This document shows, piece after piece, positions 36,036-40,853 of a stretch of DNA of 64,000 nucleotides. How positions within the stretch are numbered: the stretch's first letter is position 1; each line of letters begins with the position of its first letter. Source of the stretch: Acidimicrobiales bacterium (lineage in GTDB: Bacteria; Actinomycetota; Acidimicrobiia; Acidimicrobiales; Bog-793); the NCBI GenBank assembly GCA_052143575.1, contig JBKQSP010000043.1:88921-152920 (forward strand), given 5' to 3'. Under the pieces are notes generated by a model, which did no database searches, had not been told where the DNA came from, and worked only from the letters and a program-made list of their open reading frames with translations. Made by a program: the position numbers and the translations under genes.

Positions 36036-37067
36036 ATGCGCATCGGTGTTCTCACAGGTGGTGGTGACTGCCCGGGCTTGAACCCTGCCATCCGGGCCGT
36101 GGTCCGCAAGTGCGAGGTCGGTTTCGGCGACGAGGTCGTCGGCTTTCGCGACGGTTGGCGTGGTGTCATTGAGGACTCCACGATGCCGCTCGACGTCGAG
36201 CGATGCCGAGGCATCCTGCCTCGCGGCGGCACGATCCTCGGCACGTCACGCACGAATCCGTACAAGGTCGAGGGCGGGCCCGAGCTCGCCATCGCGACGC
36301 TGGAGCGGCACGGCATCGACGCCCTCGTCGCCATCGGCGGCGAAGACACCCTCGGCGTCGCCAACAAGCTCGGCGAGCGGGGCGTGCCCGTCGTGGGCGT
36401 CCCGAAGACGATCGACAACGACTTGTCGGAGACGGACGTCACGATCGGCTTCGACACGGCCGTGCAGATCGCCGCCGAAGCCATCGACCGCCTGCACACC
36501 ACGGCTGAGTCGCACCACCGGGTCATCGTGTGCGAGGTCATGGGGCGCCACGCCGGCTGGATCGCCACCTACGCCGGCATCGCCGGCGGCGCCACGGTCA
36601 TCCTCGTGCCGGAGGAGCCTTTCTCCATCGACTCGGTCTGCGACTACCTGCGGCACCGCCACTCGTCCGGTGCCTATGCCTCCATCGTCGTCACTGCCGA
36701 GGGCGCCAAGCCGGTCGAAGGCACCCTCGCCCTCGTCGCCCCCGAGCTCGACCAATTCGGTCACGAGCGCCTCGGCGGCATCGGCACGGTCGTCGCCGAG
36801 GAGGTCGAGCGGCGGACGGGCTACGAGTCGAGGGTCACGATCCTCGGCCACATCCAGCGAGGCGGCACGCCGAGTGCCGACGACCGCGTGGTTGCCACCC
36901 GCTTCGGCACCGCCGCGGTCGACGCCGTCCACGACGGCGCCTGGCGCCAGATGGTGGCGCTGCACGGCACACACATCGAGCGAGTACCCATCGCCGACGC
37001 CGTCGCGAAGCTGAAGACCTTGGACCCTGACCTCCTCCGCTCCGTGGCCGAGGTCTTCTTCGGCTGA
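36036..37067 (+). CDS. pfkA: 6-phosphofructokinase, probably PPi-dependent
   Basis: GGDCPGLN, GGTILGTSR, GGEDT, PKTIDND, EVMGR and LGHIQRGG. Confidence 0.92.
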   Translation: MRIGVLTGGGDCPGLNPAIRAVVRKCEVGFGDEVVGFRDGWRGVIEDSTMPLDVERCRGILPRGGTILGTSRTNPYKVEGGPELAIATLERHGIDALVAIGGEDTLGVANKLGERGVPVVGVPKTIDNDLSETDVTIGFDTAVQIAAEAIDRLHTTAESHHRVIVCEVMGRHAGWIATYAGIAGGATVILVPEEPFSIDSVCDYLRHRHSSGAYASIVVTAEGAKPVEGTLALVAPELDQFGHERLGGIGTVVAEEVERRTGYESRVTILGHIQRGGTPSADDRVVATRFGTAAVDAVHDGAWRQMVALHGTHIERVPIADAVAKLKTLDPDLLRSVAEVFFG

Positions 37068-37077
37068 GGCCGCCGGA

Positions 37078-37173
37078 TCAGCCCTCCGGAGCCGTCAGCC
37101 CGACCGGGGGAGACGCCCGTGCCGCCGATACCGCAAGTAACCATCGGGCTCTGCAACGGACTGCCGGCGGTGG
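37078..37173 (-). pseudogene. msrA: Frameshifted relic of the msrA 3' end (copy 3)
   Basis: Reads PDGY(+1 nt)CGIGGTGVS(-2 nt)PVGLTAPEG*, versus [22 protein letters not shown] in intact msrA. Confidence 0.8.
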
Positions 37174-37213
37174 CGCCGTCACCAGTCGTTGAAGAGGTGA
37201 GGCGAGCTGGTAG

Positions 37214-37762
37214 CTACCGGACGAGGTCGGCGAGCGTCACTTCCAAAGGAAACGGCCAGTCCGTCCGGAACGTGACTGTGCTCTCGGACTCGACGGTGTA
37301 TCCGCGCCCAACAAACCGCAGCGCCAGCAGCGAGGGGCCTGCCGGGTCGACGATCCAGTACACCGGCACTCCGAGCCGCTCGTAGAGGTCGCGCTTGAGC
37401 ATCCGGTCCTGTGTTGGGTTCGACGGCGACGGCACCTCCACAACGAGCAGAGGGACCGCTGACGCCGGCAAGGGTCCGGCGGGGTCGAAGTCATGGCGGC
37501 GGATCACCATCACATCAGGCTGAACGCTGCCCCCATCGGGAAGCCGCCAGTCATACGGCGCCACCATGGCCATGACCTCGTCCGTCTCGGCAGCCTGGAG
37601 TAGCGCATACAGCTTCCCGGTCACCCGCTGATGGCCACCGGTCGGCGCCGGCGTCACGATGAGGCTCCCACCGATGATCTCGCGCCGGTACCCGTCGTCG
37701 GGCATGCCCTCCAGATCCTCGTACGTGAACGGCCGGGCTGGATGGGCCATCTCAACAACCAT
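37214..37762 (-). CDS. Uma2 family PD-(D/E)xK endonuclease
   Basis: MPDDGYRREIIGGSL, QPDVMV, VVEV.SPS and K.DLYERLGVPVYWIVDP. Confidence 0.88.
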   Translation of the reverse strand: MVVEMAHPARPFTYEDLEGMPDDGYRREIIGGSLIVTPAPTGGHQRVTGKLYALLQAAETDEVMAMVAPYDWRLPDGGSVQPDVMVIRRHDFDPAGPLPASAVPLLVVEVPSPSNPTQDRMLKRDLYERLGVPVYWIVDPAGPSLLALRFVGRGYTVESESTVTFRTDWPFPLEVTLADLVR

Positions 37763-37780
37763 CAGAGCTACCGTACAACG

Positions 37781-37916
37781 TCACCGCGAAGATTCAGCTC
37801 CGTCGGACAGGGGAAGCCCCGTTGGGCACGAGTCCGATGGGGTACTTAACTGCACCCCCGTCCCGCCAAGCCCGCAATAGCCCATCGGGTTCTTCGCGAG
37901 ATACTGCTGGTGGTAG
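37781..37916 (-). pseudogene. msrA: Orphan in-frame msrA 3' end (copy 2), without start codon or catalytic domain
   Basis: [44 protein letters not shown]; shares TACTGCTGGTGGTAG (37902-37916) with 39306-39320. Confidence 0.88.
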
Positions 37917-37973
37917 CGGTCGGTGGCTTGCACTCCCAGAACCACCGGCCCCACCCAGTGGAATCGAGAAATA

Positions 37974-38036
37974 ACAACTGGTTGTAACTAGTGGATGACT
38001 GCACGTGTTACCGGCTGTAGCCAGTATTATATCCCT
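37974..38036 (+). promoter_or_regulatory. Putative leaderless promoter and operator palindromes of the HTH/Fic pair
   Basis: ACAACTGGTTGT (37974-37985) and ACCGGCTGTAGCCAGT (38010-38025), the latter abutting TATTAT, which lies 6 nt before GTG 38037. Confidence 0.55.
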
Positions 38037-38492
38037 GTGGCTCGCACGACTTCTCAGGCCCGTTCCCGGCTCGACGCTCGTCTCCAGCGGCTCCGACCGC
38101 TTGCCAGCGAGCCGCGCCCTCACCGGGGCTGGATCCGCGCCATCCGTGACGCTCTCGGCATGTCGAGCAGCGAGTTGGCAGCTCGCATGGGGGTGATTCA
38201 ACAGTCCATATCGGACCTCGAACGTAGTGAGTTGCACGACACCATCAAGTTGGAGACGCTGCGACGGGCGGCCGACGCCCTTGACTGCGACCTCGTCTAC
38301 TTCCTGCTGCCCCGAAGGACGCTTGCCGACACCGTCAACGTTCAGGCTCAACGCAAAGCGGCGAAGCTACTCGGGTCGGTGGCACACCACAGTCGCCTGG
38401 AAGACCAGGCAGTAAACGACGACGACACGGCGGTCCAGCTCAATGAGTTGGCCGCTGGATTCGTCGACCGCCGCGGCCTCTGGTCCGAGTGA
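38037..38492 (+). CDS. Mobile mystery protein A (XRE-type HTH)
   Basis: PHRGWIRAIRDALGMSSSELAARMGV.QQSISDLERSE and LRRAADALDCDLVYFLLPR. Confidence 0.88.
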   Translation: MARTTSQARSRLDARLQRLRPLASEPRPHRGWIRAIRDALGMSSSELAARMGVIQQSISDLERSELHDTIKLETLRRAADALDCDLVYFLLPRRTLADTVNVQAQRKAAKLLGSVAHHSRLEDQAVNDDDTAVQLNELAAGFVDRRGLWSE

Positions 38493-39091
38493 GGCTCGGC
38501 ACGGTGAGCGACCCACTCGTCCCGGTAGGCGACGGTCACACCGAACTGTCCGAAGAGGACCGGGAAGGTCTCATCCCGACTTACATTGCGACTCGCGGTG
38601 ACCTCTTCGACGCCGAGCAGCGCAATATTTCGCGCGCGTTGCTCCGGTCCAGTCCGACGCCTGGCGAGCTCCTCCGGGATTTGTACTTACGCCGCCTGCA
38701 TCAGGCAATGTTCAACGAGGTCTGGAGATGGGCCGGCCACTACCGACTGAGAGAGACGAACATCGGCATCGATCCGACGTCCATCTCCATCGCCGTTCGT
38801 GCGCTCGTCGATGACGCCACGACGTGGGTCGAACTCAAGACCTACGAACCTGACGAACTCGCCGTCAGGTTTCATCATCGCTTGGTGCAGATCCACGCCT
38901 TTCCCAACGGCAACGGCCGGCACGGCCGGATCGCCGCTGATTACCTCGCAGCCGGCCTGGGACAACAACCCTTCGGGTGGGGTGCCGGCCTCGAGGTGGG
39001 CACCGGCGCGCTCCGCGCCGCCTACCGTCACGCGTTGCAGCTCGCCGACGCCGGCGACATCGCCGAACTCCTCGCCTTCTCCCGAAAGTGA
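38489..39091 (+). CDS. Mobile mystery protein B (Fic domain)
   Basis: HAFPNGNGRHGR Fic motif and MFNEVWRWAGHYR; overlaps the upstream stop. Confidence 0.9.
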   Translation: MRLGTVSDPLVPVGDGHTELSEEDREGLIPTYIATRGDLFDAEQRNISRALLRSSPTPGELLRDLYLRRLHQAMFNEVWRWAGHYRLRETNIGIDPTSISIAVRALVDDATTWVELKTYEPDELAVRFHHRLVQIHAFPNGNGRHGRIAADYLAAGLGQQPFGWGAGLEVGTGALRAAYRHALQLADAGDIAELLAFSRK

Positions 39092-39220
39092 CTCCACACG
39101 ATTGTCGGATGCCGCCACCAGGGGGCTCCAAGAAGCGAAGCGAAGACTCGCCTCACCGGCTGACGAAGGAGGTCACCGGAACCTAACGGCGGTCGTACCC
39201 TCCACCGCCGACCGGTTTGA

Positions 39221-39880
39221 TCAGCCTTCAGCCGTCGTCAACCCGACGGGACAAGCCACCCCGGTCCCTCCCAATCCGCAGTACCCATTTATGTTGCGCG
39301 CGAGGTACTGCTGGTGGTAGTCCTCCGCGTAGTAGAAGGGCCCCGCCTCGACGATCTCGGTCGTGATCTCGCGGTAGCCACGCGCCGACAGGGCTGCTTG
39401 GAAGCGGTCCCGCGAGACCTTGGCGGCCGCCAGCTGGGCATCGGAGTTCGTGTAGATCGCCGAGCGGTATTGCGTCCCGAGGTCGTTGCCCTGCCGCATG
39501 CCCTGTGTGGGGTCGTGGCTCTCCCAGAAGATGCGCAACAGCTCGTCGTAGCTCGTGACAGCCGGGTCGAAGGCGACGAGCACGACCTCGGCGTGGCCCG
39601 TCCGGGCCGTGCAGACCTCCTCGTAGGTGGGATTGGGTGTGTACCCGCCCGAGTAGCCGACAGCGGTCGTGTAGACACCATCCGCCTGCCAGAACTTGCG
39701 CTCGGCCCCCCAGAAGCAGCCGAGGCCGAAGATCGCCGTCTCCGTTCCCTCCGGGAACGGCGGCACGAGGGGGCGACCGAGCACCTCGTGGGTGCCGCTC
39801 ACGGGCATGGCTGTCGCCCTACCCGGCAACGCCTCCTCGTTCGCCACCATCTCCTGCTTGCCCGACCGAAAAAAGCCCAT
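39221..39880 (-). CDS. msrA: Peptide-methionine (S)-S-oxide reductase
   Basis: [23 protein letters not shown] and AEDYHQQY. Confidence 0.96.
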
Positions 39881-39933
39881 GACGTCTCACCTTCACTCTC
39901 GTGTCCCCATCGGTCCCAACGCATACAGCCGCT

Positions 39934-40257
39934 TCAGGTGTTCCCGCTCTCGCCGTCGCCGCCCTCGTTCTCGCCTTCGGTGCCCGCCTCGGCCTCCTGG
40001 CGGTAGGAGAGCAAGAGCTCGACGAGACCGGCGCGGGTCTCGGGAGCGAGATCGTCCGGCTGCACGCTGCCGAGCAGGCCGATCGTCGCCCGCATCTGCC
40101 GCAAGTACTCGTCACACCCGTCACAGCCCGCCAGATGGCGCTCGAGGCGCGCACGTTGCCGTGCCGGCAGGGCGCCTTCGAGGTAGTCCGTCATGAGCGC
40201 GACGGCGTCGCGGCAGACGAGGTCTCGTCTCCACGCGCTCAGCAGCCGCACCATCAC
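39934..40257 (-). CDS. Zinc-finger (zf-HC2/ZAS) anti-sigma factor
   Basis: C...DYLEG.L...HLAGCDGC (HxxxCxxC); coupled to the sigma stop codon. Confidence 0.88.
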   Translation of the reverse strand: MMVRLLSAWRRDLVCRDAVALMTDYLEGALPARQRARLERHLAGCDGCDEYLRQMRATIGLLGSVQPDDLAPETRAGLVELLLSYRQEAEAGTEGENEGGDGESGNT

Positions 40258-40853
40258 GCCTCCCACTTCTTCACGTCGTCCTCGAGCATCGCCCGCACTC
40301 GAGAGCGCGCCCGGTGCAAGAGCACGCGCTGATTGCCCTCCGAGAGGCCCAGCAGCTCGCACACCTCGCTACTCGATAGTCCCTCGATGTCGCGCAGCGT
40401 TACCACCTGGCGCTGCGACGCCGGCAGCTCCGCCACGACCTCCCTGATCCTGGCAGCCATCTCAGGTGCAAGCAGCCGGTCCTCGATCTCGTCGGTCCAC
40501 ACGACCGGAGGCTCCCGCCACGAGCCATCGGAACCGAAACGGTCGGGCTCGGGGCCGTCGCCACTGTCGAGGGCGACCGAACGGGGCTCTCGGGCTCCTG
40601 TCGTGCGGGCGCGGTTCACGAGTATGCGGAAGATCCACGTCTTCAGCGAGGAGCGGCCCTCGAAGCGCGGGAGGCCCTTCACGACGCCGAGCCACGTGTC
40701 CTGCACCACCTCTTCAGCCACCGCCCGGCTCGGCACGAACGCCAAGGCGACCCGCACCATCGAGGCGTGGTACCGATCCACGAGCTCCGCGAAGGCGTGC
40801 TCATCGCCGGCGCGCAGCTCGTCGATCAGCTGCCTCTCGTCTGCGGCGCCCAC
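40254..40853 (-). CDS. ECF RNA polymerase sigma factor
   Basis: AEEVVQDTW, FEGRSSLKTWIFRI and NQRVLLHRAR. Confidence 0.92.
   Translation of the reverse strand: MGAADERQLIDELRAGDEHAFAELVDRYHASMVRVALAFVPSRAVAEEVVQDTWLGVVKGLPRFEGRSSLKTWIFRILVNRARTTGAREPRSVALDSGDGPEPDRFGSDGSWREPPVVWTDEIEDRLLAPEMAARIREVVAELPASQRQVVTLRDIEGLSSSEVCELLGLSEGNQRVLLHRARSRVRAMLEDDVKKWEA

Follow-up and report, generated by a model that had tools for sequence, protein, structure and literature searches.

Three tandem msrA 3′ ends with small cargo genes between them in an Acidimicrobiales genome: a candidate case of serial integration and decay

How does a housekeeping gene come to be followed by two further copies of its own 3′ end, with unrelated small genes lying between the copies? 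The question is raised by msrA, the gene of peptide methionine sulfoxide reductase A, in a stretch of 64,000 nucleotides (nt), hereafter the window, which is part of a 172,820-bp contig (C43) of the 4.19-Mb genome of an Acidimicrobiales bacterium (G000). On the minus strand of this stretch the last codons of msrA, from a YHQQY motif to the stop codon, occur three times, once as the active end of the gene (tail 1) and twice as displaced ends further downstream (tails 2 and 3). An earlier note, made from the DNA letters alone, had interpreted the arrangement as an integrase-free, integron-like array of cassettes. The answer that we cautiously favour is a different one, namely serial site-specific integration at an attachment (att) site inside msrA, followed by decay of the integrated elements to remnants that lack an integrase. 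The parts of the locus, read from msrA towards the convergent phosphofructokinase gene pfk, are the following, HTH standing for helix-turn-helix.

39221-39880, minus strand: msrA, functional (Pfam PMSR, E 3.8e-61)
39307-39317, minus strand: proposed crossover core, 11 nt from the His codon of YHQQY
39221-39320, minus strand: tail 1, the active msrA 3′ end, last ~30 codons, with an attL-like junction
39092-39220: spacer of 129 nt between the stops of the convergent msrA and Fic genes
38489-39091, plus strand: Fic-family gene, ‘mobile mystery protein B’, cargo of unit 1 (Pfam Fic, E 7e-12)
37995-38492, plus strand: HTH_3 gene, ‘mobile mystery protein A’, cargo of unit 1 (Pfam HTH_3, E 2.6e-11)
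37917-37994: right end of unit 1, 78 nt upstream of the HTH gene, up to the tail 2 junction
37917-39320: unit 1 as a whole, 1404 bp by the spacing of the repeats
37781-37916, minus strand: tail 2, a displaced msrA 3′ end, still open
37214-37762, minus strand: gene of a Uma2-family PD-(D/E)XK nuclease, cargo of unit 2 (Pfam Uma2, E 5.7e-27)
37078-37171, minus strand: tail 3, the ancestral msrA 3′ end, with two +1 frameshifts
36036-37067, plus strand: pfk, convergent with msrA (Pfam PFK, E 1.4e-106)

The two units measure 1404 bp (unit 1) and about 743 bp (unit 2), and the copies are spaced by 1404 and 741 nt. The non-coding stretches of the array are the 129 and 78 nt listed above, 18 nt between tail 2 and the Uma2 gene and 42 nt between this gene and tail 3, the end of which lies ten bases from the stop codon of pfk. 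The HTH and Fic genes, being on the plus strand, are antisense to msrA, and a scan of the locus for promoters and terminators found nothing.

Whether the extra copies are genuine msrA ends was evaluated with a DNA profile of 20 msrA tails, one from the window and 19 from relatives (the unpublished genome G002 among them). Run with nhmmer against the whole genome, the profile gave three matches only, all on C43 and on one strand, with E values of 2.9e-28 (tail 1), 5.8e-19 (tail 2) and 1.3e-5 (tail 3), the next best match being at 3.9, so that both extra copies are significant genome-wide. In a tblastn search with a 44-residue tail query, tail 2 was found with an E value of 2.4e-10 and tail 3 showed up as a pair of adjoining matches, each below significance and in a frame of its own. 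Coordinates and profile matches thus agree with the three tandem tails, with cargo between them, that had been described before, tail 3 being placed at 37078-37171. The 15-nt identity noticed previously between 37902-37916 and 39306-39320, at a spacing of 1404, is present as well, and direct repeats of the msrA 3′ segment flank the inserted DNA. The extra copies open at positions 23 and 26 of the profile, and YHQQY opens at position 25.

Repeats can break or mis-join assemblies, and the assembly of one relative, G009, does break at its msrA tail; a local tandem duplication or an assembly artefact had therefore to be considered. This explanation is extremely improbable and is refuted by the codon differences between the tails, by an independent contig and by the identities of tails and gene bodies given below. 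Over 64 nt, tails 1 and 2 share only 75% identity, and of 22 codons compared 11 differ, 7 synonymously and 4 non-synonymously, which argues that they represent diverged functional alleles and not a recent local copy; the mainly synonymous character of the differences had been recognised before, and with the same consequence. Tail 2 retains an open frame of 57 residues with a 7-residue insert before the second Cys. Moreover, each tail of the window is closer to tails in other genomes than to the other two. A contig of 5,647 nt from a wetland metagenome of another study (X4) extends over 36830-40400 and departs from the window in 8 letters and by one insertion of 21 nt, which is outside the array; this contig spans all three tails with the same layout, and mis-assembly is therefore ruled out. 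The insertion, at window position 39969, is in-frame and within the zf-HC2 anti-sigma factor gene (39934-40362, minus strand), which precedes msrA and follows the gene of an extracytoplasmic function (ECF) sigma factor (40254-40853, minus strand).

The same tail pattern was looked for behind other genes of G000, by using the last 40 residues of 6,850 open reading frames with high GC3 (G+C content at third codon positions) as tblastn queries (E<1e-4, same strand, up to 12 kb downstream). None was recognised by eye among 80 of the 84 matches, which were those listed; apart from msrA, these were tandem-repeat proteins or neighbouring paralogues.

The copies share a common boundary. In 61 msrA genes of the family, compared over positions -300 to +60, no stretch of columns conserved at 90% or more is longer than the 11 nt that open with the His codon of YHQQY. 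In the window, in G021 and in G007 the displaced tails begin 0-4 nt from the CAC of this core, and a remnant of 33 nt in G115 spans it. Four independent joints thus lie within 0-4 nt of one point, with a fifth remnant across it, and random joints would scatter. Eleven bases are too short for efficient RecA recombination and are the typical size of an integrase core, and the conserved block fits the core of a site for a site-specific recombinase.

The history of the interval was followed through the msrA-pfk synteny, for which the loci of 12 relatives were compared. Within the genus the interval, including both stops, is 22 nt in G008, 32 nt in G005, 169 nt in G003, 274 nt in G006, 713 nt in G007, 756 nt in G001 and about 3 kb in G004, and in the window 2,153 nt separate the two stops; the strain comparison suggested in the earlier note does therefore reveal a variable interval. 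The stretch 36981-37171, made of tail 3 and the end of pfk, is colinear with the empty sites of G005 (79% over 200 nt) and G008 (75% over 196 nt), and the alignment of tail 3 and pfk opens two bases inside the Tyr codon of YHQQY. This colinearity shows that tail 3 is the original msrA end in its original place and, together with the short gaps of these two relatives, it bears out the ancestral layout proposed before, with pfk convergent with msrA. As a separate observation, the spacer of G006 (L033, 274 nt) consists in part of two head-to-tail copies of a roughly 95-nt unit, and the gaps of G007 and G001 (L031 and L032, respectively) hold a small gene with a signal-peptide-like start and no extra msrA tail, so that insertions at this place do not always duplicate the tail.

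Tail 2, together with the 5′ end of the Uma2 gene, is colinear with a locus of G009 in which an active tail is followed by Uma2 (77% over 222 nt), and tails of its type are active in G033, G100 and G081. G100 also has a partial internal msrA copy (G100:C3, L091 2994-3290; residues 68-166, 73% identical, with neither N-terminus nor tail) about 6 kb downstream of its complete msrA.

Tail 1 is 92.7% identical in DNA to the tail of G115, a member of a different genus, and the 300 nt that precede it are 79.9% identical. By contrast with its body, which is closest to G006, G007 and G001 (84-85%), the tail of the window gene is 70-72% identical to theirs; over 60 relatives, G002 included, the difference between tail and body identity has a mean of -0.04 and a standard deviation of 0.058. 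The gene of G000 switches from the type of its genus to the type of G115 between +14 and +18 nt from the core CAC, 16 consecutive informative sites (+18 to +89) follow G115, and the likeness ends at the stop codon. These comparisons show that tail 1 is a foreign, horizontally acquired msrA end. Tails of its type are found in the genera g1, g10 and g25, those with the 7-residue insert of tail 2 in g1, g25 and g3; the types cut across species groups, and the tail of G004 joins the start of one type to the end of another.

Tail 1 is in use, tail 2 has been displaced with its frame still open, and tail 3 carries two frameshifts. This order of decay, in which the most distal tail is the most decayed, as had been pointed out before, fits successive insertions next to the gene body. 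The boundaries of the copies and the breakpoint of tail 1 likewise support the part of the earlier proposal in which insertions occurred one after the other at or next to YHQQY, a foreign tail restoring the gene and the old one being pushed downstream.

According to the reading that we favour, the 3′ end of msrA would hold an attachment site centred on the YHQQY codons, at which a small integrating element would have recombined twice. Each element would carry its own version of the part of msrA between crossover and stop codon, and after integration the gene would be intact, composed of the native body, the core and the element-borne tail, the older tail becoming a downstream pseudogene. Tail 2 (now with Uma2) would have arrived in the first event, leaving the ancestral tail 3 displaced beside pfk, and tail 1 would have come in the second, together with the HTH and Fic genes, so that tail 2 was displaced in its turn. 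A tyrosine integrase would be the most likely recombinase, either lost by later deletion or acting from elsewhere. The outcome would be att-flanked remnants without an integrase that keep genes of the addiction or defence type, comparable to relics of cis-mobilizable elements (CIMEs) in tandem accretion. That a site-specific recombinase made the joints, and has since been lost, is what we infer from these data and from the context in which the cargo is found.

The cargo genes are well-defined members of their families. The HTH protein matches TIGR02612 with 152.4 bits (cut-off 122.6) and the Fic protein TIGR02613 with 207.7 bits (cut-off 124.4) in NCBIfam; both are full-length, their genes overlap by 4 nt, and the HTH protein is presumed to be an antitoxin or a regulator. 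Uma2 matches Pfam PF05685 with 94.7 bits (cut-off 27), and among the PADLOC candidate defence families the Fic protein falls in PDC-S04 and Uma2 in PDC-S03 (E 6.5e-23). The assignments of the earlier note, with an HTH+Fic pair between tails 1 and 2, Uma2 between tails 2 and 3, and a toxin-antitoxin (TA) or defence character of the cargo, were thus recovered with Pfam and NCBIfam and, for the last point, also with PADLOC. We also noticed that an 8-nt direct repeat, CGGTAGCT, brackets Uma2 on the minus strand (37766-37773 and 37212-37219), one copy being just past the stop of tail 2 and the other overlapping the Uma2 stop codon; it may be due to chance or may be the trace of a separate insertion of Uma2.

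The distribution of TIGR02613 is patchy, with 12 of 92 family genomes and 6 of 29 genera (the unpublished genomes G113 and G132 enter only this tally, that of PF00589 and the counts of tails in the family and in the order). The closest homologues of the window pair, with 53% and 60% amino acid identity for HTH and Fic, are in G110, within a 2.5-kb islet (L133 4223-6827, G110:C330) between perfect 46-nt repeats of the 3′ part of a tRNA-Leu gene, and a truncated integrase adjoins this tRNA-Leu, retaining the Arm-DNA-binding domain and positions 7-58 of the 172 of the catalytic domain. The pair of G091 lies in a 2-kb islet (L132 9604-11898, G091:C127) without integrase, flanked by a 230-nt repeat of 87% identity that includes the 5′ part of a tRNA-Ser gene. 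In G096 the pair abuts a tRNA-Ser gene, and in G082 a full-length integrase is found 1.1 kb from the pair, among insertion sequence (IS) elements, with no link found between this contig and the msrA contig of the same genome. The loci of the pair in G093, G010 and G011 have neither integrase nor tRNA within the flanks examined. Integrating elements thus regularly carry the HTH+Fic pair, which tends to outlast their decay, as would be expected of an addiction-type module. Since homologues of the pair occur in att-flanked tRNA islets with integrase remains, the decay of integrase-borne elements would explain the missing recombinase of the msrA locus.

Displaced tails are rare elsewhere. The protein search detected tail-only matches in 3 of 92 family genomes (G000, G021 and G007; msrA is present in 86), and one further case, a short remnant in G115, came from applying the DNA profile to 61 msrA-downstream loci, for a total of 4 of 92; among 131 order-level genomes a displaced tail was found in G000 only. 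In the order sample, G118 and G167 gave two tail matches each, starting from query residue 1-2, which were taken for the ends of a second msrA-type gene. The allele with ARNINGY had an exact match only in G000 among 401 order-level genomes, and four matches with 2 mismatches were discarded, since they carry the ordinary ARNPNGY form. A displaced-tail pattern run over genome contigs produced 3 matches, all of them ordinary msrA genes with Arg before YHQQY. Four records of viral contigs with tails were also set aside, being whole msrA genes with one tail each, two of them with an integrase on the 5′ side of the gene, and having no bearing on the 3′ site.

In G021, which belongs to another genus, the DNA from the active to the displaced tail holds a Phd/YefM-like gene and a PIN gene with a frameshift, and the displaced tail begins at the His codon of the core. 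The active tail of G115 has the same protein sequence as tail 1 of the window. G004 retains an end of the tail-1 type, 19 nt shared with the beginning of the window msrA-Fic spacer and a 98-nt Fic fragment, a decayed copy of unit 1. G007 has an orphan tail of the tail-1 type on a contig apart from its msrA (L051 8100-10100; G007:C3 ~1048100-1050100), split by a transposase gene of the IS256 family that is itself frameshifted; a tyrosine integrase of 319 residues is encoded about 1 kb away. The orphan tail could be the product of insertion at a secondary site or an attP-like remnant. The fragment joined to it at the core, which we take to be RHS-like (the end of an RHS core), had no match in Pfam. 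Finally, the G009 contigs C6 (L039 2948-3165) and C244 (L052 1-230) have 94 identical nt, that is, an msrA tail plus 12 nt, after which one continues into Uma2 and the other towards pfk. Either this genome has two identical tails, or the presence of Uma2 is polymorphic in the sampled population; no contig extending the Uma2 end was found.

Several results weigh against a site-specific integration of this kind. No match to PF00589 or PF00239 is present on C43, as the earlier note had anticipated in finding no recombinase nearby, and the array contains neither an integrase nor a fragment of one; a remnant of this kind, the truncated integrase next to the homologous pair of G110, bears on the locus by analogy only. 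A panel of 11 integrase proteins, used in tblastn searches of 61 msrA-downstream loci (533 kb), found no integrase-like match; msrA-linked integrases were judged by this panel and not by the family-wide PF00589 search, of which 150 of 1,491 matches were listed. An intact element that uses the msrA 3′ site was not seen anywhere. Neither an excision joint nor a circle, be it of unit 1 or of unit 2, turned up in four metagenomes (X4, X6, X12 and X19), surveyed as Logan contigs, in which rare forms are invisible. G000 and G115 share the coding tail only and not the DNA behind it, and in G115 only about 85 nt, with no cargo, separate the new tail from the 33-nt remnant. The left flanks of the displaced tails, which would be the P arms, share only a short GC-rich motif, a likeness smaller than expected for a single family of elements. 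In G009, Uma2 may have had its own indel, and then cargo and tail need not arrive together.

Three candidate joints of the excision survey were rejected: 37135>39303 and 37135>39305, whose sides measure 23-27 nt and enclose 22-24 other letters, correspond to the ordinary msrA-pfk layout of relatives, with no excision, and 37648>39040 was set aside for its side of 24 nt and its occurrence in one run only.

Several of the observations that weigh against integration speak for a route without any recombinase, in which foreign msrA DNA from other genera would have been patched in by homology-facilitated illegitimate recombination, or by break repair, near the conserved block. One side would be anchored at YHQQY and the other joined illegitimately, with duplication of the tail, and the small selfish genes Uma2, HTH+Fic and Phd-PIN would later have occupied the non-coding space so created. 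The mosaic and polyphyletic tail alleles, the tail patch as the only DNA common to G000 and G115, the cargo-less duplication of G115, the poorly conserved left flanks and the lack of an integrase at any of the 61 loci would all agree with it, as would the hint of a separate Uma2 indel in G009, although there the likeness between the Uma2-less junction and the region of the Uma2 stop is weak, 23 of 500 shuffles reaching it. On the other hand, illegitimate joints would be expected to scatter, whereas here four fall within 0-4 nt and a fifth remnant spans the point; the perfectly conserved block of 11 nt is short for homologous pairing; and homologues of the cargo pair are found at tRNA genes, within att-flanked islets that retain traces of an integrase. 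We regard this route as a serious rival, but as a rather unlikely one.

Integration followed by decay has also to be compared with the reading given in the earlier note, that of living cassettes without integrase, each made of tail and cargo, moved in trans and accumulated in an age-ordered, integron-like array. The units are indeed compact and self-contained, with att-like repeats at both ends; three more mini-islets of TA type without integrase are known (at msrA in G021, at tRNA-Ser in G091 and at tRNA-Leu in G110); the orphan tail of G007 indicates that a tail segment can travel without the gene body; and recombinases that might act from elsewhere are encoded in G000, which has 9 matches to PF00589 and 1 to PF00239 outside the contig. 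In a broader form, HTH+Fic, Phd-PIN and perhaps Uma2 would be recombinase-less cassettes of 0.7-2.5 kb, consisting of cargo and a replacement end, inserted in trans and stacked newest-first, an idea to which we give little credence; equally doubtful is its corollary, that their targets would be msrA, tRNA-Leu and tRNA-Ser and that the integrases of other elements would act on them. Extra tails are limited to 4 of 92 family genomes and, in the order sample of 131, to G000; no second gene of G000 showed the pattern among the matches listed, no array exceeds two units and no identical cassette was seen at two sites. The truncated integrase of G110 points to decay and not to design, and the related islets are att-flanked. 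The check proposed earlier, a 1404-bp excised circle and its empty site, gave no joint in the contigs of the four metagenomes. No intI, attI or attC-like feature was found, by searches in which no dedicated attC model was run, the repeats being msrA coding tails, and Rfam gave only two sub-threshold matches to snoRNAs, considered as chance. An active integron-like system is not supported, nothing beyond compactness favouring it, and the cassette interpretation of the earlier note is improbable.

Known systems offer close parallels to integration and decay at msrA. Phage 21 of Escherichia coli integrates at the 3′ end of icd. The element e14 also uses icd, replacing the 3′ end of the gene and leaving a C-terminal pseudogene, icdC, and the two ends differ synonymously (PMC13626634). 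As in the msrA locus, the insertion is in the 3′ end of a housekeeping gene, an alternative end is supplied and the original end is left on the far side; repeats of the gene 3′ end on both flanks, and a foreign active end with a displaced original one, are features that the window shares. However, e14 is a prophage of 15 kb with its own integrase that still excises, whereas the inserts of the window measure 0.74 and 1.4 kb, are stacked twice and have not been seen to excise, and a site-specific recombinase of their own is absent from C43, as searched with PF00589 and PF00239.

For integrative and mobilizable elements (IMEs) and CIMEs a course is described in which an element integrates, decays until it keeps its att flanks but no integration genes, and is joined by a further integrating element (PMC5704250). 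CIMEs and the tandem accretion of integrative elements of the ICESt1/ICESt3 type, which sit in gene 3′ ends, resemble our locus in being att-flanked, in the loss of integration and transfer genes and in the tandem arrangement with later arrivals; attL- and attR-like ends are kept in the array, and integration or transfer genes are absent from it. The known cases are mainly streptococcal and occupy tRNA or other target genes, whereas here the target is msrA in a high-GC genome of actinobacterial type. The msrA gene itself is known as an attachment site: for phage PhiM247 of Lactobacillus crispatus an attB of 96 nt is placed at its 5′ end (PMC10763512). The target gene is thus the same as in the window, but PhiM247 is a complete prophage at the 5′ end in a Firmicute. 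This 5′-end case was the only one found in a single literature search on msrA with attB and integrase. In two lower-GC viral or proviral records of IMG/VR (L112 8671-10563 and G483) a tyrosine integrase is encoded just upstream of a complete msrA, which recalls the 5′-end site of PhiM247.

With integron arrays the locus shares a one-directional stack of small units of TA or defence type, promoter-poor or self-contained, with the newest at the entry point; unlike them it has no IntI, attI or attC, the repeated sequence is the coding tail of a gene, and there are two units only, rare among relatives. Rhs and contact-dependent inhibition (CDI) loci consist of a main gene followed by orphan C-terminal modules that start from one conserved point, with small genes between them. 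The displaced C-terminal fragments of msrA similarly start from the same conserved point; however, they are no polymorphic toxins, nor do the intervening genes encode cognate immunity proteins. The one link to such loci is the RHS-like fragment, without a Pfam match, to which the orphan tail of G007 is joined.

Taken as it stands, the locus is a tidy example of known biology. The course of integration, decay and accretion known from IMEs and CIMEs, together with the icd/icdC arrangement, matches it, and it is an ordinary, though unusually compact, case; what is new is the target gene msrA, the lineage and the very small size of the relics. The 3′ end of msrA would be added to the list of attachment sites, and the HTH+Fic ‘mobile mystery’ pair, which is poorly understood, is tied to very small att-flanked islets at three targets. 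If such islets were mobile in trans, they would represent a new class of minimal integrative cassette; classical integrons have, to our knowledge, not been reported in this phylum, and miniature cassettes inserted in trans, if they proved true, would amount to an integron-like cassette economy in it. The comparison further indicates that different genera exchange the last ~30 codons of msrA. Since each arrival brings a spare gene end, the pseudo-tails give the order of events, and the locus may be read as a datable record of how a housekeeping gene serves as a landing pad without being damaged.

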